A stretch of 64,000 nucleotides of DNA from Deltaproteobacteria bacterium (GTDB lineage Bacteria > SAR324 > NAC60-12): NCBI GenBank assembly GCA_038133845.1, contig JAYPUA010000015.1:2268-66267 (forward strand), written 5' to 3'. The notes under the pieces were generated by a model, which was given only the letters and a program-made list of their open reading frames with translations, did no database searches and had not been told where the DNA came from. The position numbers and the translations under genes were made by a program. Each line of letters opens with the position of its first letter. The stretch's first letter is position 1. Of this stretch, positions 3,493 to 13,521 are shown piece after piece.

Positions 3493-4496
3493 CGCTTCTT
3501 GCGGCTGAGATCAAACAGCCTTCCACGCAGTTCTCCAAGGATTTCGTGGATGGGCATGTCCGGCATTTCCTCCCAACCCATCGTCCGGAGAATGTAGGCC
3601 AGCAGCAACGGCCGCCGCATGCCTCGGTCTTCCCAGATGCGGTGAATCTCCTCATGCTCTCGGGGCAGGGGGCGTCCGTCGATGTCGCGGCGCAAGAGAA
3701 ACTTGAGGGCCGAGTCCGGATACTCGCCAACAAACAGGGCCATCGAGGCCGCCGTGATCTCTCCGTTGCCAAAGACCACGTCTGCTTCGTCATCCGTCAC
3801 CTGAGCGAGCCCCAGTTTGCCTCCTTCCAGTTCCTCCAGATCGTCCAACTCGTCGAGATCTCCCGCAGGGAGTTCGACATCCAGCAGGTTGGCCGCAGAG
3901 ACCTCTTCAACAGAAGTCACAACCACTTCTTCCTCCAACGGTTCCTCCTCGAACTCTTCAGAGAGCGCCGCCGCTGAGGTAACTGTCCCCTCTGAATCGT
4001 CTCCGGCGATCTCCGACTCAACAGGAATCTCCAGGCTCTCTTCCGACAGTTCCTCCTGAACCGAGGCTTCTCCGGCCTCCAGTTCTTCGGCTACTGGGAT
4101 CTCCAGATCCTCCTCGGTGGAGGACTCCATTTCCGGACCTTCCTTCCCTGCGGCGCGGCGCCTGCGACGGTGCCCTTCCAGGTAGTCTCGGACGCGGGTA
4201 AAGGGAGGGAGTGGATTTTCAGGGATGAACTCTGGATCCAGAAAACGTCCTGCTCGGCGCAGTCGTTCATAGGTAACCGCAGGGGTCTGTTCGGACGTGT
4301 CCTCAACAAGTCTTAGGATGTCCTGAGGCATCACCCAGCCACTCGCCGGACGAGCCTTCGCCGGAACTCGGGCGCGGGAGGTCTGACGCGATTCATCGGA
4401 GAGGTGCGGGGATTCCGGATCGTGAACGGAGGCTGGGAGGTGGCGTTTCCAGAAGCCGTCCAGCAGAGCTTCGGCCTGGAAGCCGGAGAGAGGCAT
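3489..4496 (-). CDS. Hypothetical protein with long acidic low-complexity central region
   Basis: 335-aa ORF whose ATG overlaps the stop of the upstream flaG-like gene (TGATG). E/D-rich middle, predicted-helical C-terminal domain. Confidence 0.75.
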   Translation of the reverse strand: MPLSGFQAEALLDGFWKRHLPASVHDPESPHLSDESRQTSRARVPAKARPASGWVMPQDILRLVEDTSEQTPAVTYERLRRAGRFLDPEFIPENPLPPFTRVRDYLEGHRRRRRAAGKEGPEMESSTEEDLEIPVAEELEAGEASVQEELSEESLEIPVESEIAGDDSEGTVTSAAALSEEFEEEPLEEEVVVTSVEEVSAANLLDVELPAGDLDELDDLEELEGGKLGLAQVTDDEADVVFGNGEITAASMALFVGEYPDSALKFLLRRDIDGRPLPREHEEIHRIWEDRGMRRPLLLAYILRTMGWEEMPDMPIHEILGELRGRLFDLSRKKR

Positions 4497-5303: not shown

Positions 5304-6633
5304 GCAGGTCGTCCGGAGTGGTCGCTCCGACGATGGCCCCCAAGGCGTTGAGAGCCGTCCTCAGGTCCACCGCGAGGCACTCCTCTCCAACGTCCTGCAC
5401 CAGTCCATCTCTCACCCACTCCAACGCCTCCAGCGCTCGCTCTGCGGACTGCTGTTGTCGCAGGTTGGTGATCCAGATCTCTTCTCCTGCGGGGACCTCG
5501 CCCATCATGGCCTTGCGTACCAGCAAGGCTTCCAGCAATTCCAGACCCTCTCCTGTACGGGCGGAGAGCAACACCTGCTCTCCGGGAAGCTCCGGATGCA
5601 GCCAATGTGGAGGCTGAGAGCAAAGATCCATCTTGTTCAGCACAGTCACTGTGCGCTCTGGATCAGCCTCCTCGAGCAGCTGAAGACTCTCCGGACCGAG
5701 CGGGCGCGAGGCGTCCAGCAGGATCAGGGTCAGATCTGCCTGCTGCCAGGCGTTGCGGGATCGACGAATTCCTTCCTGCTCCACCACATCTGCAGTGGTC
5801 CGGATCCCTGCGGTGTCAATGATCCGGAAGGCGAGGCCTTTGAGGTGCAGTCTTTCTTCCAGACTGTCTCGCGTGGTCCCCGGAATCTCTGTGACGATCG
5901 CCCGCTGTTCTCGGAGCAGCGCGTTCATCAGCGAGGACTTCCCCACGTTGGGTTCGCCGATCAATGCAAGCGACACACCTTCGCGCATCCGGCGTCCCTG
6001 GTCCGCATGTTCCAACATGTGACGCAGGTCTGCAGAGGCTTGATCGATGCGCTTCAGGCAGTCCTCGTGATGGGTGAAGACGGTCCCTTCTTCCGGAAAC
6101 TCGATGCAGGCCTCCACTAGCGCCGCGACCTGTGCCACTTGCTCCTCGATCGCCTCAATCGCACGAAAGAGCTTGCCACGCAGCTGGCGGACTGCCACCT
6201 GACGTCCGGACTCGGAGCGCGCGTGGATCAGGTCCGAGACCGCCTCCACCTGGGTCAGGTCCAGTCGGCCGTTCAGGAAGGCTCTCCGGGTAAACTCTCC
6301 TGGCTCCGCGAGCCGGGCTCCGTTTTCCAAAACCATCCGGACCATGGCTTCCAGCGTCAGCGGGCTGCCGTGGCCTTGAATCTCTACAACCGTCTCCGCC
6401 GTGTAGGAGCGGGGGGCGCGCATCACTGCCACCAGGACCTCATCCAAAGGCTCCCCCGCTTTACTCATGATCCAGCCATGACTCAGCCGATGAGACGGCA
6501 CCCGATGCAGATCGGCTCCCTGAAAGTGTGTGGCGACACACTCCACGGCGCGGGGACCGCTGATGCGAAGGACTCCAATTCCGGATGGCTGCGGAGCCGT
6601 CGCGATGGCGACGATGGTATCGTCGAGGTGCAT
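5266..6633 (-). CDS. mnmE: tRNA modification GTPase MnmE
   Basis: DTIVAIATA, PRSYTAE, GEFTRRAFLNGRLDLTQVEAV, GEPNVGKSS, GTTRD, DTAG, NKMD and C-terminal FCIGK. Confidence 0.97.
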   Translation of the reverse strand: MHLDDTIVAIATAPQPSGIGVLRISGPRAVECVATHFQGADLHRVPSHRLSHGWIMSKAGEPLDEVLVAVMRAPRSYTAETVVEIQGHGSPLTLEAMVRMVLENGARLAEPGEFTRRAFLNGRLDLTQVEAVSDLIHARSESGRQVAVRQLRGKLFRAIEAIEEQVAQVAALVEACIEFPEEGTVFTHHEDCLKRIDQASADLRHMLEHADQGRRMREGVSLALIGEPNVGKSSLMNALLREQRAIVTEIPGTTRDSLEERLHLKGLAFRIIDTAGIRTTADVVEQEGIRRSRNAWQQADLTLILLDASRPLGPESLQLLEEADPERTVTVLNKMDLCSQPPHWLHPELPGEQVLLSARTGEGLELLEALLVRKAMMGEVPAGEEIWITNLRQQQSAERALEALEWVRDGLVQDVGEECLAVDLRTALNALGAIVGATTPDDLLGKIFAEFCIGK

Positions 6634-8096
6634 TACATCAGCGAGTGGACGTGTCTCACCGGAATGGAAGCAGCCTGCACATCCAGCAGCACCCGTAGGG
6701 CATTCTCCCGGATGCGATGGCTGTGGGCCAACAAGGCCATGCTCGCCTCGGTCACAATCTGGCGCCGGGTAAAGTCTGCCAGCTCCTTGGCCAGATCCAC
6801 GTCTCGGACAATTGATTCGGCGCTGCCGACGCTTTCCTGAGTCAGCCGCAAGACCGAATCGTGGTGGTCCAGAGAACGCTGTACCGACCCCAGATATCCG
6901 CGCACCGAAAGGAGCTGCTCCGTTGCACCATCAACCATCCGGACGGCATCGGCAGCCGACTGAGGTGAATCAAAATTGATGTCAGCCAGGCTATTGAACC
7001 CGCTGTTGTTCGGAACCCCTCGTCCCAACGCAGAGGAGTGGATGTTGGCCAGCGTGATCGGCATCTGCTGCCCAGCCTCCGTTCCAATCTGGAAGCGCGG
7101 TGCGTTCTGACGTACCGTGATCGAGCCGACACTTCCGGTCGAACTGCCCAAATAGGCGACCTGCAGGCCACTGGTGAACTCGTTGGAGGCCTTTCCAGTC
7201 AGGTAGGCTCCGTTCCCCATCGCCGGTTCTTCGTTGATGGAGCCCGCGATGTCAGTTCCAAAGTACAGCTCCGGTTCATTGGCCGAACTGGTCAGCACCC
7301 CGTCCTTGGACGTTGTGATCATGAACCCCTTGGCCAGTCCGTAGTCCTTGTGCTCAATCCGGATGTCCTCGTCATCATGCGTGATGGCGAGATTCATGTT
7401 TGCGTCCAGCACTGCCTGCGCGAGCCTGGTGTAGAGGCCTTCGGCACTGCTGAGCGGGTTGGCATGCACCGTCACTGCTCGCCCATCCTCCTCTTCGAGC
7501 ACAATTGTCAGTCCGGAGGCGTCATCATCATCCATGCTGCCTTCAAACACGGCACGTCGAGGCAACCGGGTAACCTCCACCGAGTAACCGTTGACCGGCG
7601 AACTCAGTGTCTCGGCTCCAGAGCGGATGAACACCAGCTCCGAGTTGTTGCTCGTTCCGACCGATCCCTGGCTTCCATCCAGCAGGTTCTTCCGACCAAA
7701 CTGGGTATTCCGTGAGAGGCGGTCGATGCCGTCAAGTGCCGTCTTCAATTCACTTTGAAAACCGGCGACGGTTGCCAGATCGTAGGGATCTGTATTTGCG
7801 GCGGCAAGGGCTGTCTGGCGAAGTCCCATGAGCAGTCGGGTCGCTACATTGATCGCATCGTCTGCCGTCTGGACGATGGAAAGCGAGAGTGCCGTATTCT
7901 CCAGAGCCTGTTCCACACTGGCCAACTGGGCCCGTAGTTGCTCCGACAGGATCAGGCTGGCCGGACCATCCGCAGCCCGGGTGAGTTTGCTTCCTGATGC
8001 CAGGCGTTCCAGAGAACGCGCCAGAGCGTTGTGGTTGACCGCAAGGTAATGAAGCGGATCCGGAGTCAGGCCGTCATTGCGTATTCCCAGAATCAT
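6633..8096 (-). CDS. Divergent long flagellin-like protein (487 aa)
   Basis: SLERLASGSKLTRAADGPASL, NTQFGRKNLLDGS, FQIG and IVRDVDLAKELADF; degenerate termini and a C-terminal extension. Confidence 0.85.
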   Translation of the reverse strand: MILGIRNDGLTPDPLHYLAVNHNALARSLERLASGSKLTRAADGPASLILSEQLRAQLASVEQALENTALSLSIVQTADDAINVATRLLMGLRQTALAAANTDPYDLATVAGFQSELKTALDGIDRLSRNTQFGRKNLLDGSQGSVGTSNNSELVFIRSGAETLSSPVNGYSVEVTRLPRRAVFEGSMDDDDASGLTIVLEEEDGRAVTVHANPLSSAEGLYTRLAQAVLDANMNLAITHDDEDIRIEHKDYGLAKGFMITTSKDGVLTSSANEPELYFGTDIAGSINEEPAMGNGAYLTGKASNEFTSGLQVAYLGSSTGSVGSITVRQNAPRFQIGTEAGQQMPITLANIHSSALGRGVPNNSGFNSLADINFDSPQSAADAVRMVDGATEQLLSVRGYLGSVQRSLDHHDSVLRLTQESVGSAESIVRDVDLAKELADFTRRQIVTEASMALLAHSHRIRENALRVLLDVQAASIPVRHVHSLM

Positions 8097-8189
8097 GACA
8101 GTTCACTCAAGTGAGTGGGTCCGGGATTCAGGAGCCTCCACCTTCCCGGGACCTCCCTGGGGGAAATCCCGGAAGTTGGGTGGAAGTCC

Positions 8190-9101
8190 TCAGGCGTTGA
8201 TCAAGCGCATCACGTTTTGTGGCATCACGTTGGCTTGAGCCAACTGAGCCATGGCGGACTGCGTCATGATCTGGTTCCGGGTGAACGTGGCCATCTCGGA
8301 GGCCATGTCCGTATCCCGGATCACCGACTCGGCTGCGGTCAAGTTCTCCTGAGCGACACGCAGGCTGGTCAGGTTGCTCTCCAGAGTGTTTTTCTGGAAG
8401 GCACCCAGCTCCCCACGGATGGTGGCGATCTGCTGAATCGCTGCGTCCACCATGCCGATGGAATCCTGAGCCCCGCTAGTCGATGTCACGTCGATGTCTG
8501 CCAAGGAGGCGAAGCCACTTCCGTTGCTCACCGACTCTACGGTCTTGCCCACCATCCGGCCGTTTTCACGCTGAATCGTGACGTTGAAGCCCAGATTCTG
8601 GGAAGCGACGCTGGGCAGTTCCACCGAGGTGGTCTGTCCGGCGTTTGCTCCAACCTGGAAGCTCAGGGTGGAGTTCTCTCCATTGAGCAGCTTCTTGCGG
8701 GCAAACTGCGTGTTGTCAGCAATCCGGTCGATGGCCATCAGGGCGTTCTCGATCTCTTGCTGGGAAGCCTCACGCATGGCCTCATCGTTGGTTCCTTCGT
8801 TGGAAGCGGCGATGGCCTGCTGGCGGATGTCGACGAGCAATCGACCCACTTCGTTCAGAGCGCCTTCTGCGGTCTGGACCATGGTGACGGCCGCTTCGTT
8901 GTTGCGAGTTGCCTGCTCCAACCCGCTGACCTGAGCCCGCATGTACTCCGAGATCACCAGGCTGGCAGGGCCATCTGCACCCCGGTTGATCTTCAGACCT
9001 GAAGACAAGCGCTCCAGGCTCTTGCCCATAGCTTCGGAGTTTTGGGTAAGGTTGCGGTGAGCAATGTTGGCACCGACGTTGTTGTTGATGCGAAGAGTCA
9101 T
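8190..9101 (-). CDS. fliC: Short flagellin (303 aa)
   Basis: LRINNN, SLERLSSGLKINRGADGPA, FQVGAN, RGELGAFQ, ESVIRDTDMASEM, AQLAQAN. Confidence 0.95.
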   Translation of the reverse strand: MTLRINNNVGANIAHRNLTQNSEAMGKSLERLSSGLKINRGADGPASLVISEYMRAQVSGLEQATRNNEAAVTMVQTAEGALNEVGRLLVDIRQQAIAASNEGTNDEAMREASQQEIENALMAIDRIADNTQFARKKLLNGENSTLSFQVGANAGQTTSVELPSVASQNLGFNVTIQRENGRMVGKTVESVSNGSGFASLADIDVTSTSGAQDSIGMVDAAIQQIATIRGELGAFQKNTLESNLTSLRVAQENLTAAESVIRDTDMASEMATFTRNQIMTQSAMAQLAQANVMPQNVMRLINA

Positions 9102-9104
9102 AAT

Positions 9105-9200
9105 TCCTCTTTAGGGTCAAGAAGTTGAGTAGAGATTCCTCCTGGAAATAAGCATCTCCTCCAATGAGATGCTCTCAACGTGGGATCCACCTTCCGATGG
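9105..9200 (-). promoter_or_regulatory. Flagellin 5' leader with GGA-containing hairpin (putative CsrA sites)
   Basis: Minus strand AGCATCTC-ATTGGAG-GAGATGCT stem with GGA in the loop, plus CCAGGAGGAA. Similar to the leader of the 12613 flagellin. Confidence 0.4.
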
Positions 9201-9301
9201 TGTCGCTTAGAACCTGATGTCAATTTCAGGCCTTTCCCATGCTCCTCTTGGAGCTGCGACTGACGAAACCTGCTCGGAACCTCCGCAACCGGCTAAGGAG
9301 C

Positions 9302-9323
9302 GGACCACCGTCCATGGCAATCC
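9302..9323. promoter_or_regulatory. Conserved 22-nt motif ~200 bp upstream of flagellin, copy 1
   Basis: GGACCACCGTCCATGGCAATCC; 20/22 identical to 12810-12831. Confidence 0.55.
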
Positions 9324-9370
9324 GCGTAAGCGGGAACCGAGGCTTTCGCCACAATAAAGACGTGTTGCCT

Positions 9371-9682
9371 TCAGCAGTACTGCGTTGACAACAGACGTTG
9401 CAAGGCCTGAGACGCCTGCTCCAGTCCCAGCCCGGAGCCTTCACTGCCGGAAGGGGCCGAGGCCGCCAGCGCACTTGCAACAGGGAGCTTGATGGAGACC
9501 GGTCCCAAGGCATCAAGCCGGGAACCCAGCCGGGATTCTCGATTCACACAACGGTCAATCGAGTCCAATGCGGCCTGAACCGCAAAAGCCTCACCTATCC
9601 CGGGGGATTCCGGGATCTCGGATTGCGGCTTTAACACGCGTCGGAGGTTCAGTTCCGAGCGGTCTTGAGGATCACGCCACAT
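9371..9682 (-). CDS. Orphan small protein A (103 aa), paralog of 12852-13190
   Basis: ATG preceded by AGGAG. Shares MW.D, ALDSIDR/ALESIDR and C-terminal E.A.QAL..LLST..C with its paralog. Confidence 0.7.
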   Translation of the reverse strand: MWRDPQDRSELNLRRVLKPQSEIPESPGIGEAFAVQAALDSIDRCVNRESRLGSRLDALGPVSIKLPVASALAASAPSGSEGSGLGLEQASQALQRLLSTQYC

Positions 9683-9706
9683 GTGCTTGCTCCTGAAAGT
9701 TGAGAA

Positions 9707-9771
9707 GCCCCCTTCTCCTGAATCAAGGTGCCTTCCCATGGCTCGCTCGAAACTTGAGCGGAGAAGGGGGC
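9707..9771. ncRNA. Conserved structured element, copy 1 (unknown class)
   Basis: 12-bp closing stem GCCCCCTTCTCC/GGAGAAGGGGGC around a core shared with 13214-13280. Confidence 0.5.
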
Positions 9772-9945
9772 AATAGTGGTAAAATAAGAGCTTCCTCGAG
9801 TCGTCACCAACGGGACTGCTGGAGGAAGTTTACGATGCGCGGGCCAAGCGGCATCGAATTCCAGAGAGCGTGTGGAGAGAAAGGTCCTCCGGACCGCTCC
9901 TGTATTTCGAGGGACCTTCCGTGAATCGGAGAGCCCCTGAGAGTC

Positions 9946-10167
9946 TCAGCACCCGCATTTGCGGGTAAAAAAGTTCTTGATCGCGCGTTGTTCATCTTCA
10001 ATCGCGCTGCAGTAGTTCGAGCAGCCAGAGTTGGTGCTGCAAGCTCCGAGGCCGATCAGGAGGACCAGGAGGCCTCCGATCAGGCGAATTCTCCAAGAGA
10101 GCGTTTCCCTGGAGCAGCTGTCTCCTGGGTTCAGTCTCAACATCGTGGAGTGCACCAGGCTCCTCAT
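9946..10167 (-). CDS. Small Cys-rich lipoprotein
   Basis: ATG directly follows the stop of the M24 gene. Hydrophobic stretch with lipobox LGAC; mature 31-aa peptide with 4 further Cys. Confidence 0.55.
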   Translation of the reverse strand: MRSLVHSTMLRLNPGDSCSRETLSWRIRLIGGLLVLLIGLGACSTNSGCSNYCSAIEDEQRAIKNFFTRKCGC

Positions 10168-11319
10168 TCAACAAACCACCAAATCCAGTGGGTGCCGGGA
10201 GAGCCGTTCGCACCCGGACTCCGTCACCACCACCGTGTGTCCCAGGCTCATCGCCTGATGGGCGGCGCTATCCATCAGGATCATGTGGAGGAAGAACACC
10301 ATGTTCGGCTCGGCCACTACCGGGTTGCCGTGATAGAACATGGGCCAATCCATCCAGTTCGGCGCGAAGGTGGTCCCCAGGCTGTAGCCTGTCGCGTTGA
10401 GTCGATGCTCCCGCATTCCGGCGGCATCACACGTTTGGGCGTAGGCATCAAAGACCGCCCCCACAGGGTTCCCCGGGACCAGTGCCGCCTCGCAGGCTTC
10501 CAGCGCTGCCACACAGACCTCGTGCATGAGCCGGTGCCGAGCCGTTGCCCGGCCGACCGGGATCGTGCGCATCATGGCCGCGTGGTAGTGTCGATACACT
10601 CCGGCCCACTCCAGCGTGAGTTGATCCTCCGGGTCCAGTTGGCGTCGTCCGGTGGAGTAACGGCAGAGCAGCGCCTGCGCTCCGGAGCCAATGATGAACT
10701 CGTTTCCCGGATAGTCCCCGCCTCCTCGAAAGATGGTCCCTTGCATCACGGCAAGGAGTTCTCCCTCGTCGGTGCCTGGCTCCAGAATCCGGAAGGCTTC
10801 ATCCAGCGCATCGTCTGCCAGCTCGGCTGCACGCCGGACGTAGCTCAGTTCCGCAGGGCTCTTGACCACCCGCAACTGGCTCACCAGTAGCGAGGCGTCT
10901 TCCAGCACGCAGAAGTTCCGGAGCGCTTGCTCCAGCCGCTTCCCGTTTGCCGCAGTCAGTCCATAGGCGTCGTACTCCACCCCTAGAGATTTTCCGGCAC
11001 ATCCAAACTCGCGGAGGGTCTCCCGGAGTTCTTCCGCAGGGTTTGCCCCAAATCCATCCGTCCAGATTCGAATGTCAGTGATCATGGACGTCTGCTGCGC
11101 CTGTCGCAGGTCCGCAGAGCGTGTCAACAGGAACAGGTCTCCGTTGACTCCCAGATACAGACACTGAAAGAACACATAGCCAAAGGAGTCGTAGCCCGTG
11201 AGATAGAACATGCTCTCCTGACGGAAGATCAAGATCCCGTAAAGGTTCGCCTGTTCCAGGGAGAAACAGACCTGCTCACGTCGTGTTGCCAGTTCTTCCC
11301 GCGAAAAGTGCAGGGGCAT
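10168..11319 (-). CDS. M24 family hydrolase, creatinase/ectoine-hydrolase-like
   Basis: Creatinase N-domain (QESMFYLTGYD), LRVVKSPAEL and pita-bread fold motifs; canonical metal ligands replaced. Confidence 0.85.
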   Translation of the reverse strand: MPLHFSREELATRREQVCFSLEQANLYGILIFRQESMFYLTGYDSFGYVFFQCLYLGVNGDLFLLTRSADLRQAQQTSMITDIRIWTDGFGANPAEELRETLREFGCAGKSLGVEYDAYGLTAANGKRLEQALRNFCVLEDASLLVSQLRVVKSPAELSYVRRAAELADDALDEAFRILEPGTDEGELLAVMQGTIFRGGGDYPGNEFIIGSGAQALLCRYSTGRRQLDPEDQLTLEWAGVYRHYHAAMMRTIPVGRATARHRLMHEVCVAALEACEAALVPGNPVGAVFDAYAQTCDAAGMREHRLNATGYSLGTTFAPNWMDWPMFYHGNPVVAEPNMVFFLHMILMDSAAHQAMSLGHTVVVTESGCERLSRHPLDLVVC

Positions 11320-11687
11320 GACTCCTGTTCAGTTCAGAGTGAAAGCCGAGGCCGCCTTGATGAAGACTCCGGAGCGTTCCGGAGTTCACGGGGCAACCTT
11401 TTGGAACAGGGCGAGACACAATCGAAAGCCGAGGCTTGCGTTTGGTTCTGTACGGACAGATTCGTTGTGCCGCCCCCTGATCCCGAAAGTCACGAGATTC
11501 CGGAGGGCTTGGCTTCCATGCACGGAACAACAGATGTCAAAGAACAAGGCGACAGAGGCGGTCACTTCCTGTGGTGCCTGTGGGCGTCACCAGTGAAGGT
11601 CCGAAGGGGCTCTTCAGGCCTTCGCTGGAGGCGTCCAGCACAACGTCGGGAGCTTAGAGTCGAAGCTCCAAGCTCCCGGCGAATCCT

Positions 11688-11712
11688 TCCAGGCAGGGAG
11701 TCCCTGCCTGGA
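11688..11712 (-). terminator. Strong hairpin downstream of the flagellin at 11723
   Basis: TCCAGGCAGGG/CCCTGCCTGGA 11-bp stem 10 nt after the stop. Further stems at 11648-11677. No clear U-tract. Confidence 0.45.
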
Positions 11713-11722
11713 GAGAGTGTGT

Positions 11723-12613
11723 TTAGCCGTTGATCAGCCGAAGCACATTTTGCGGGTTCATGTTCGCCTGGGCCAACTGAGCCGTTGCCGACTGGGTCAT
11801 GATCTGGTTGCGGGTGAACGTCGCCATCTCCGCAGCCATGTCCGCATCGCGGATGACCGACTCGGAAGCCTGCATGTTCTCCTGAGCAATGCGCAGGCTG
11901 TTCAGGTTGCTCTCCAAGGTGTTCTTCTGGAAGGCACCCAAACGACCTCGGGTGGAGGCCACCTGCTCAATCGCCGCATCCACCAGGTTGATGGTGTCCT
12001 GTGCCCCCAGCGTGGTGGTCACGTCCACGTCCGAGAGCGAGGCAAAACCGCTCCCGTTAGCCACAGCATTCTTGGCTCCGGTGGCCGGATCAACATCGAA
12101 TCCCAACTGGTTGGTTGCCATGTTGGGGACGTCGATGGTCACGGTCTGTCCGGAGTTGGCACCGACCTGAAAGGTCAGGGTCGGGTTGCTTCCGTCCAGG
12201 ATGTTCTTGCGGCCGAACTGGGTATCGCGAGAGATGCGGTCAATGGACTGCAGCGCGTTTTCGATCTCCTGCTGAGAGGCCTCTCGCATCGCCGGATCGT
12301 TGGTTCCTTCGTTGGCAGCGGCAACCGCTTGCTGTCGAACTGAAACCAGAAGTTTGCCCACCTCATCCAGTGCACCTTCTGCGGTCTGGACCATGTTGAC
12401 GGCGGTCTCGTTGTTGCGAGTTGCTTGCTCCAGGCCGTTGACCTGAGCCCGCATGTACTCGGAGATCACCAGAGCGGCAGGTCCATCTGCACCACGATTG
12501 ATCTTCATTCCGGAAGACAGGCGCTCCAGGCTCTTGCCCAAGGCTTCATTGTTGCCCACGAGGTTGCGGTGGGCGTTCATGGCACTGATGTTGTTGTTGA
12601 TTCGAAGAGACAT
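11723..12613 (-). CDS. fliC: Short flagellin (296 aa), close paralog of 8190-9101
   Basis: SLRINNN, SLERLSSGMKINRGADGPA, FQVGAN, RGRLGAFQKNTLESN, ESVIRDADMAAEM. Confidence 0.95.
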   Translation of the reverse strand: MSLRINNNISAMNAHRNLVGNNEALGKSLERLSSGMKINRGADGPAALVISEYMRAQVNGLEQATRNNETAVNMVQTAEGALDEVGKLLVSVRQQAVAAANEGTNDPAMREASQQEIENALQSIDRISRDTQFGRKNILDGSNPTLTFQVGANSGQTVTIDVPNMATNQLGFDVDPATGAKNAVANGSGFASLSDVDVTTTLGAQDTINLVDAAIEQVASTRGRLGAFQKNTLESNLNSLRIAQENMQASESVIRDADMAAEMATFTRNQIMTQSATAQLAQANMNPQNVLRLING

Positions 12614-12809
12614 AGGGACCTTTTTATTGGTAAGGTATTGTCAATTATCCTTCTTGGAAAATAGGCACAATCTCATCCATGTGATGGCCTGTATCAGGGG
12701 TTGCCTTTAGGCAACTGCCGCGGGAATGTTTGGTTCCATCCTCAATTCCTCCCTCCACCGGAAACCGGTGGGCGGTACCGGAGCATTTCCGAAGAAATCC
12801 TCGCGGGAA

Positions 12810-12831
12810 GGACCGCCGTCCATGGCAGTCC
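12810..12831. promoter_or_regulatory. Conserved 22-nt motif ~200 bp upstream of flagellin, copy 2
   Basis: GGACCGCCGTCCATGGCAGTCC; 197 bp from the ATG versus 201 bp for copy 1. Confidence 0.55.
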
Positions 12832-12851
12832 TAAAAAATCAAAACGATCTG

Positions 12852-13190
12852 TCAGCAGCGATCTGTGGAAAGCAGTTGGCGCAGGGCCTGGGCCGCTCGC
12901 TCCATGCGGGCGTTGACCTCTGCACGCTGGCTTTGCCAGTGATCCTGCCTCGGATTGCTCACCGGATCTGCATCGGTCTCCGACGAGGGGGCGTTTGCAC
13001 GAATTCTCCGTTTCCTGCTTACAGGAATTTTTGAATCCGGAACGCCGTGGCGGTCAATCGATTCCAGCGCCATGCGGATGGCTTCCGATTCGCGCTCGGC
13101 AGCACTCGCAGGGGACTGGAGCTTTACAGTCTGTGAGGAATCCGGAGCATCCCACTCTGGGACATCCAAGTAGTCATTCCACATATTCAT
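12852..13190 (-). CDS. Orphan small protein B (~110 aa), paralog of 9371-9682
   Basis: MNMWNDY...AIRMALESIDR...MERAAQALRQLLSTDRC. Start at 13190 or 13184. Confidence 0.7.
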   Translation of the reverse strand: MNMWNDYLDVPEWDAPDSSQTVKLQSPASAAERESEAIRMALESIDRHGVPDSKIPVSRKRRIRANAPSSETDADPVSNPRQDHWQSQRAEVNARMERAAQALRQLLSTDRC

Positions 13191-13213
13191 CTCAGCATTG
13201 GTGAATGCGAAGA

Positions 13214-13280
13214 GCCTCTTCCCTGAGCCGTCTAAGGTACCGTTCCATGGCTCGCTTGGACGAAACTCGAGGGAAGAGGC
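13214..13280. ncRNA. Conserved structured element, copy 2 (unknown class)
   Basis: 10-bp closing stem GCCTCTTCCC/GGGAAGAGGC; core AAGGT.CC.T.CCATGGCTCGCT...CGAAACT.GAG shared with copy 1. Confidence 0.5.
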
Positions 13281-13521
13281 AAATCCTCCTACTCCGTCCA
13301 ATGGAGATCCCGGCACGTACTTTCCGCTCAATGGAAAGTGGGTTGTAAGAGTTCTGTAGCGAACTCCGACCTCATCCACGAGGCCTCGCACCTGGATTGC
13401 TCCACGGCACAGGGTGAGACACGGCTTGATGTCCCTCCCTGTCACGCGGAAGGCTCCGGAGTGCAGGAGGTTCTACAGTCCTCGATTGTTCAAGAGCACA
13501 TGGATCTGCTCCATGGGGCAT

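Follow-up and report, generated by a model that had tools for sequence, protein, structure and literature searches.

A conserved hairpin precedes each of two small orphan genes, themselves followed by flagellin genes, in a 64-kb stretch of DNA (here called the window) from an uncultured SAR324-related lineage. This element is very probably a functional RNA structure of the gene strand: its closing helix changes in sequence from copy to copy while keeping its pairing, and its tip is nearly invariant. A more tentative reading, a little short of evenly balanced, is that it forms a cis-acting leader hairpin and a putative binding site for a protein of the CsrA/RsmA type, which by analogy with known flagellin leaders would control translation of the orphan-flagellin unit. 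Both copies lie on the minus strand, which is the gene strand, and are read below as the reverse complement. The element is 63-68 nucleotides (nt) long, and the copies in the window lie about 25-30 nt 5' of the orphan gene. The features concerned, with protein lengths in amino acids (aa), are as follows.

9707..9771, minus strand: element copy 1 (W1), leader hairpin 5' of orphan 1, with a perfect 12-base-pair (bp) closing helix
9771-9760 and 9718-9707, minus strand: 5' arm and 3' arm of W1, as read on the gene strand
9725..9748, minus strand: apical module of W1, GAGCGAGCC[AUGGGAA]GGCACCUU, GGA motif in the loop
13214..13280, minus strand: element copy 2 (W2), 11-bp closing helix (13280-13270 with 13224-13214), 26 pairs in total in the minimum-free-energy fold
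13234..13257, minus strand: apical module of W2, AAGCGAGCC[AUGGAAC]GGUACCUU

Structure and conservation of the element

The initial annotation of the window gave exact coordinates and sequences for both copies, and correctly described closing stems that differ and yet pair perfectly. In W1, GCCCCCTTCTCC (9707-9718) pairs perfectly with GGAGAAGGGGGC (9760-9771) across 41 intervening nt; in W2, GCCTCTTCCC(T) at 13214-13224 pairs with (A)GGGAAGAGGC at 13270-13280 across 45 nt, the perfect 11-bp repeat written in full being GCCTCTTCCCT / AGGGAAGAGGC. They represent two of the three perfect inverted repeats with spaced arms of at least 11 nt in the whole window, the third being a terminator-like hairpin at 11688-11712. 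The two copies also share an inner block (9725-9747 and 13234-13256, 87% identical over 23 nt) and the motif CGAAACT.GAG, both of which had been recognized in the annotation. The unit of element, orphan and flagellin is a diverged duplication, with about 3510 bp between its two occurrences and an M24 peptidase gene in between, and W1 and W2 are paralogues. Conservation of the element goes beyond chance: next to orphans of only ~31% identity, and in a leader that is otherwise unalignable, the core has hardly changed. The inner ATG is in frame with orphan 1 in W1 (9739 versus 9682, 57 nt) and out of frame with orphan 2 in W2 (13248 versus 13184, 64 nt), as had been pointed out, and the conservation is thus not at the protein level.

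Relatives were sought with flagellin 2 as the query against a collection holding one genome per species. The closest flagellins, at 78% identity, belong to two metagenome-assembled genomes, L010 ('Deltaproteobacteria bacterium', JAYOTF01) and L011 (uncultured bacterium, CBFIGY01), and those of the SAR324 cluster come next at ~63%. L010 and L011 each carry two orphan-flagellin units (A and B), with the element 25-35 nt 5' of the MW start of the orphan, giving a total of six element copies, five of them distinct, in three uncultured genomes, always before an orphan homologue that precedes a flagellin. Gene order, together with flagellin and orphan identity, places W1 with the B copies and W2 with the A copies as orthologues. 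Other assemblies of the window species (L001-L009, L091, L092) contain identical elements. Profile searches of 5.8 billion clustered proteins and 1.84 billion representatives confine the orphan homologues to the three species; one additional match (P0008), a repetitive 1175-aa protein without a meaningful domain match, was discarded.

A covariance model built from the three cleanly aligning copies (W2, L010B and L011B) finds the other three at E = 1e-7 to 1e-10. MAFFT set the arms of the element out of register, and the model-based alignment of the six sequences was used. At its named pairs 98.7% of the cells pair canonically, compared to 43-66% when the 3' partners are slid by 1-3 columns; in the closing helix, 5 of the 11 pairs are changed on both sides; and the observed covariation score is reached by none of 500 shuffles. 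The closing arms (5'/3') are given below.

W1: GCCCCCUUCUCC / GGAGAAGGGGGC
L010A: CCCCUUCCCC / GGGGAAGGGG
L011A: GCCCUUCUCC / GGAGAAGGGC
W2: GCCUCUUCCCU / AGGGAAGAGGC
L010B and L011B: GCCUCUUCUCU / GGAGAAGAGGC

The fourth closing pair is either C-G or U-A, and its two states are distributed opposite to the orthology of W1 with B and of W2 with A. Such a distribution of stem types against orthology implies that double compensatory changes arose more than once.

The whole element forms one irregular hairpin of 22-26 pairs (-27 to -35 kcal/mol), which comprises three parts. The closing helix, of 10-14 bp, is made of a pyrimidine and a purine strand; the middle helix is unrelated in sequence between copies yet paired (GAGU..CGUC / GACG.GCUC in W2, UGGGAG / CUUCCA in L011A and UGUG / CAUG in L010B); and the tip is nearly invariant, AAG.G.GCC[AUGGRAM]GGY.C.CUU or, in fuller notation, AAGCGMGCC[AUGGRAM]GGYACCUU, with a CAUGGA motif in a loop of 7-8 nt. 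This single-hairpin design with its AUGGA apical loop is the free minimum-energy fold in four of the five distinct copies, and in W1 it lies within 0.7 kcal/mol of the optimum.

L010 and L011 have the same B element at 63 of 63 positions, while identity in the flanking leader is 55-86% and the synonymous sites of the orphans are near saturation (dS, the synonymous divergence, of 0.9-1.1). Between the window species and L010, the element is the sole well-aligning block of the leader. On neither strand is the reading frame through the element the same in all copies, and a leader peptide encoded by an open reading frame (ORF) from the inner ATG was rejected, as it is not conserved and a 1-nt indel between L010B and L011B shifts its frame. 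To judge from these comparisons, the element is under strong constraint and its structure is well supported. The central claim of the initial annotation, a conserved non-coding RNA-like element with compensatory stem changes 5' of both orphans, is upheld by the homologues in the two further genomes, which confirm the covariation. That the element is unclassified was likewise confirmed: across the window there were 0 matches that reached the gathering threshold of an Rfam 15 family, a limit of E <= 10 brought up no relevant match in 9100-13500, and matches to mir-874 and Tymo_tRNA-like, located elsewhere than the element, were dismissed as chance.

The search for additional copies returned only the known ones. 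An improved covariance model recovered from 677 kb only the six orthologous and paralogous copies, scanning the metagenome collection for the core pattern gave the same two loci and five chance matches without a stem, and covariance models applied to 76 flagellin loci of relatives gave no further copy. Two candidates were set aside, namely L032 5144-5181, a terminator-like hairpin after a flagellin gene, and L012 818-880, a weak match (E = 5.8) in a GGA-rich SAR324 flagellin leader. A dispersed DNA repeat, a match to which the annotation had named as a possible refutation, therefore fails as an explanation, whether of the REP or the MITE type (repetitive extragenic palindrome or miniature inverted-repeat transposable element), as there are no copies at unrelated sites.

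Fold energies are similar on the two strands, and the strand call rests on G.U pairs and on position. The tip contains a G.U (columns 34-47) in five copies and a G-C in W1. At the inner end of the closing helix, L010B and L011B have a U.G (columns 12-63), intermediate between C-G and U-A, and tandem U.G/G.U pairs extend this helix. The hairpin that follows the orphan gene (described below) has a U.G that is invariant in all six copies, which indicates selection at the RNA level on the gene strand across the unit. A signal in the opposing direction is a C.A mismatch in the tip, which would be a G.U on the other strand.

The genes of the two units are arranged as follows.

9371..9682, minus strand: orphan 1 gene, 103 aa, starts MW..., ends ...ALQRLLSTQYC
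9690..9694, minus strand: Shine-Dalgarno AGGAG of orphan 1, 7 nt 5' of its ATG; contains GGA, ~45 nt 3' of the apical GGA
8190..9101, minus strand: flagellin 1, 303 aa, 3' of orphan 1; Pfam Flagellin_N and Flagellin_C
12852..13184, minus strand: orphan 2 gene, 110 aa from the conserved MW start
11723..12613, minus strand: flagellin 2, 296 aa, 3' of orphan 2

The spacing between orphan and flagellin is ~240-270 nt in both units. The orphans are real genes under purifying selection, with a ratio of nonsynonymous to synonymous change (dN/dS) of 0.12-0.13 between L010 and L011 and differences mostly at third codon positions. The proteins, of 103-117 aa, have in common the MW start, a helix with A(I/V)Q.AL..IDR and, at the C-terminus, LEQAAQALRQLLAT.RC, whose final Cys is invariant. 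They match no Pfam family and contain no known RNA-binding domain, and their AlphaFold2 model is of low confidence (pLDDT 58), mostly disordered with two predicted helices; a role as flagellin-linked regulator or secretion substrate would be a guess. Public gene calls assign 197 aa to orphan 2 (12852-13445, with a GTG start at 13445), which runs through the element, as does a 131-aa ORF at L011 1566..1961. Both are probably too long and should be shortened, since the MW N-terminus is common to the six homologues, with no conservation of the extension.

Several further features were observed around these genes. The hairpin at 11688-11712, a perfect 12-bp stem with a 1-nt loop (TCCAGGCAGGGA / TCCCTGCCTGGA) immediately after the stop codon of flagellin 2, probably terminates that unit. 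A third and longer gene of the flagellin family (487 aa, 6633-8096, minus strand) follows flagellin 1; a hairpin, CCGGGA...UCCCGG, whose loop includes CAGGGAGG lies in the 93-nt spacer 5' of it (8097-8189), and the gene has a Shine-Dalgarno, GAGUGAAC, similar to that of the B-type orphans. At 9940-9970, between a 73-aa ORF and the leader of orphan 1, is a small hairpin rich in G+C that reads ACCCGCAAAUGCGGGU on the gene strand, with a U-run before and not after it on this strand.

GGA-loop hairpins and a possible CsrA-type regulator

The loop motif of the element recurs throughout the unit. On the gene strand, CATGGA occurs 5 times between 12600 and 13520, where ~0.35 occurrences are expected from the window rate of 24 per strand in 64 kb. 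The hairpins that accompany the element are listed below.

9300..9325, minus strand: post-orphan 1 hairpin, CGGAUUGCC[AUGGAC]GGUGGUCCG; hexaloop of the CANGGANG type, three G.U pairs on the gene strand
12809..12832, minus strand: post-orphan 2 hairpin, AGGACUGCC[AUGGAC]GGCGGUCCU
about 3781-3808 and 6826-6850 of L010: post-orphan hairpins
9151..9174, minus strand: hairpin before flagellin 1, GAGCAUCUC[AUUGGAG]GAGAUGCU, ~55 nt 5' of the flagellin 1 start
about 3932-3952 of L010 and about 2160-2185 of L011: pre-flagellin hairpins of the relatives, with AUGGACC / AUGGAGU loops
13292..13306, minus strand: small hairpin CUCC[AUUGGAC]GGAG, 11 nt 5' of W2

In each unit the stop codon of the orphan is followed, at 26-66 nt, by a post-orphan hairpin whose covarying stem bears a C[AUGGAC/AUGGAA]G hexaloop; by analogy, it resembles a classical intergenic CsrA/RsmE site of high affinity within an operon. 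The pre-flagellin hairpin is clear in four of the six units, 55-70 nt before the start, with loops AUGGACC, AUGGAGU or AUUGGAG and with stems that differ completely between species. A hairpin 5' of the element is found in three of the six (W2, L010B and L011B), the loops of the latter two being ACAUGGAAG / ACAUGGAUG. In the element itself the apical loop, preceded by C, is AUGGAAC or AUGGACCC in five of the six copies and AUGGGAA in W1. A second site was defined as a GGA at or near the Shine-Dalgarno within the reach of a dimer, about 10-63 nt. The orphan ribosome-binding site contains a GGA in L010A/L011A (GAAAGGAGA), in W1 (UCAGGAGC) and in L010B/L011B (UUGGAGU), W2 having no clear GGA, and the spacing from the apical GGA to the orphan Shine-Dalgarno is ~35-50 nt.

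In Campylobacter jejuni, CsrA recognizes the motif (C/A)A(A/T)GGA and represses flagellin mRNAs by means of two GGA stem-loops in the leader, and it also binds between the genes of operons (PMC4894983). CsrA of Bacillus subtilis likewise represses flagellin translation via GGA stem-loops in the leader (PMC4894983; PMC13443453). The CAUGGA of the element fits the C. jejuni motif, and the C[AUGGAM]G post-orphan loops fit the CANGGANG hexaloops that CsrA/RsmE bind with high affinity. By analogy with these systems, the element would be a structured RNA belonging to the 5' leader of a minus-strand transcript of orphan and flagellin, and a dimer of the CsrA type may hold its apical GGA loop together with the GGA-containing Shine-Dalgarno ~35-50 nt downstream. 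The element would thereby provide a long-stemmed first binding site and the orphan ribosome-binding site the second, and bridging by the dimer would set the translation of the orphan and perhaps the stability of the messenger RNA (mRNA). The CAUGGA-loop hairpins after the orphan and before the flagellin could then place the whole unit under one regulator, as in CsrA-FliW-flagellin circuits. Three points are inferred, namely that the element is transcribed within the orphan mRNA, which protein binds it, and that translation is affected; a binding partner of the CsrA type is possible, though it leans towards doubtful.

Flagellin loci of the SAR324/Lambdaproteobacteria-like relatives contain the motif 49 times in the sense and 8 times in the antisense orientation within 200 nt upstream of their flagellin genes, and their Shine-Dalgarno is CAAGGAG, as in the Firmicutes loci that have csrA beside flagellin. 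In the SAR324 leaders of L012-L016, CAAUGGAU and CAUGGAGGAUGG are conserved 120-150 nt before the flagellin and the Shine-Dalgarno is ACAAGGA(G/A), which may correspond to the dual-site pattern of CsrA-controlled flagellin genes; these five loci contain neither the orphan gene nor a copy of the element.

Several observations weigh against a CsrA-type site. Only about 30% of bacterial genomes carry csrA (PMC13443453), and a tblastn search with the E. coli and B. subtilis proteins finds no csrA in the 64-kb window or in the flanks of L010-L017; the same search finds it beside flagellin in ~20 loci of other phyla, mostly Firmicutes. The literature collection that was searched contains no paper naming both SAR324 and CsrA. 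No recognisable promoter, sigma-70 included, is present in or near the element. The W1 loop is CAUGGGA and not CAUGGA, the W2 ribosome-binding site has no GGA, and that of the B copies has only UUGGAG. The evidence comprises five distinct sequences from three genomes, and if paralogues have undergone gene conversion, independent events may be miscounted. Moreover, the apical module of 24 nt is far more invariant than a CsrA site needs, while the post-orphan stems covary freely. This excess invariance suggests that something reads or pairs with more than the loop; the tip may be read by a lineage-specific protein, for which the orphan is the obvious candidate, by an RNA partner or through an alternative pairing. 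Three such pairings were tried and dropped as inconsistent between copies, namely those of the apical GCCAUG with the start region AUGUGGC, of GGUACCUU with the flagellin ribosome-binding sites and of the pyrimidine arm with the Shine-Dalgarno.

Other explanations for the element

A structural leader hairpin without a dedicated regulator, acting on half-life as a stabiliser of the mRNA 5' end or as an RNase III site, is rather unlikely, even if the long and stable helix is situated near the gene start and leaves the Shine-Dalgarno and start codon outside. A TT(G/C) junction immediately precedes each of the six copies and no promoter is seen 5' of it, so that transcription could start at the foot of the helix. 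Yet neither the stabiliser hairpins of the ompA and aprE leaders nor the RNase III sites of leaders depend on a conserved loop sequence; a helix would suffice for this function, which leaves the 24-nt invariant tip unaccounted for, and the CAUGGA loop motif recurs in three other hairpins of the unit. In addition, the conserved hairpins 5' of the element in L010B/L011B and W2 point to a transcription start further upstream. Another explanation is a lineage-specific binding protein other than CsrA, either the orphan protein as an autoregulator, the most economical candidate, or a flagellar checkpoint factor that acts as FlbT does on flagellin leaders or as a secreted regulator like FlgM. The invariance of the tip suggests sequence-specific reading of stem as well as loop. 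The element and the orphan family share the same very narrow distribution and were duplicated together with flagellin, and the orphan, with its two predicted helices in a mostly disordered chain, is under the purifying selection described above. This explanation is nevertheless unlikely: the orphan has neither a known RNA-binding domain nor a Pfam match, its structural model is of low confidence, and the loop motif is of a generic CsrA type that is also present 5' of flagellins in relatives without the orphan. It is quite improbable that hairpin and orphan protein make up a self-contained post-transcriptional module that travels with each flagellin gene, in which the orphan binds the tip of its own leader or competes there with CsrA; such a module would tie flagellin production to the assembly or export of the filament and would add a new kind of flagellar checkpoint to those of FlgM, FliW-CsrA and FlbT/FlaF.

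A role at the DNA level, as operator of a dimeric factor, unusual core promoter or invertible or cruciform segment of a flagellin switch, is very improbable. The core does contain two 6-bp palindromes (CCATGG and GGTACC), invariant as protein-binding DNA sites are, and it sits where a promoter or operator of the orphan could be, no other promoter having been recognized. The arms and the middle helix, however, change sequence and keep pairing, as expected of selection on pairing and not on DNA sequence, and the spacing of the core varies by 1 nt between copies. Neither a sigma-54 (GG-N10-GC; TGGCAC-N5-TTGC) nor a sigma-28 (TAAA-N15-GCCGATAA) match was found in or near the element in the six leaders and six orphan-flagellin spacers, and the AAGC/TGTTTT blocks 5' of some copies are variably spaced. 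As to inversion, the orientation is the same in all 11 independent assemblies (L001-L006, L008, L009, L091, L092 and the window), and a segment of 41-46 bp is far too small for known invertases. The initial annotation had itself favoured an unclassified cis-regulatory RNA of the riboswitch or attenuator kind, or an antisense RNA on the plus strand. A conserved, structured non-coding element in a 5' region agrees with this in general terms, and the plus strand folds with about equal energy, but these specific functions are scarcely probable. The element is one irregular hairpin without junction or pocket and matches no Rfam model, the c-di-GMP (cyclic di-GMP) classes and GEMM included. There is no U-tract or alternative terminator: 41-46 nt separate the arms, UUCUC or UCUUC follows on the 3' side, and a terminator scan found nothing at the element. 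The proposed pair of GNRA tetraloop and 11-nt receptor (consensus CCUAAG...UAUGG) is not conserved, as TCTAAG occurs only in copy 2 (CTTGAT, CTTTAC or CTTTCTG in the others) and the GAAA is on the opposite strand in L010B/L011B and absent in L010A/L011A. An antisense RNA is opposed by the G.U pairs, which only the gene strand tolerates, within the element as well as in neighbouring hairpins, and which would be A.C mismatches on the plus strand; in the model search the plus strand scores 40-55 bits lower. What stands of the earlier interpretation is thus the unclassified cis-regulatory RNA with a covarying closing stem; the tetraloop-receptor, riboswitch, attenuator and antisense proposals do not.

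Comparison with known systems

The present work describes a well-supported, unclassified structured RNA from an uncultured SAR324-related lineage without known regulatory biology, and its six sequences and model structure could seed an Rfam-style family. If the CsrA-type reading is true, flagellin homeostasis by GGA hairpins would extend into this phylum-level group, in a variant design whereby the regulated gene encodes a small lineage-specific protein before each flagellin. If it is not, the invariant 24-nt tip would point to a new RNA-protein pair.

Among known systems, the flg-Rhizobiales motif and the c-di-GMP-I/II riboswitches are likewise conserved structured RNAs 5' of motility genes, yet no model of the flagellar and c-di-GMP families in Rfam matches the element, with its single-hairpin architecture. 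It resembles the ompA and aprE stabilisers in having a long stable helix 5' of a free ribosome-binding site, and differs from them in that its tip is the most conserved part. The post-orphan hairpins resemble the RsmE/CsrA targets with CANGGANG hexaloops, such as hcnA and the sponge RNAs of the RsmZ type, in their C[AUGGAM]G hexaloop, their covarying stem and the presence of several per RNA. The element, in contrast, has a loop of 7-8 nt (AUGGAAC, AUGGACCC or AUGGGAA), and its RNA would be the transcript of a protein-coding operon and not a sponge RNA.

The CsrA sites of C. jejuni flaA (SL1/SL2) and B. subtilis hag (BS1/BS2) are similar in several respects. They too lie in untranslated RNA of a flagellin unit, have ANGGA or (C/A)A(A/T)GGA in an apical loop, possess stems backed by compensatory changes between relatives, and are accompanied by further sites between operon genes (PMC4894983). 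Their second GGA is at or near the Shine-Dalgarno tens of nt downstream, a position that carries a GGA in the present copies other than W2. The element departs from them in preceding a small orphan gene and not the flagellin itself, in its helix of 22-26 bp compared to 3-7 bp, and in the invariance of a 24-nt apical module compared to the loop only. Its distance to the Shine-Dalgarno is ~35-50 nt, compared to 18-21 nt in flaA; W1 has CAUGGGA, and one copy has no GGA at the ribosome-binding site. Judged by analogy, the architecture and context of the element are best explained as a putative variant of the GGA-hairpin sites for flagellin control of the CsrA type.

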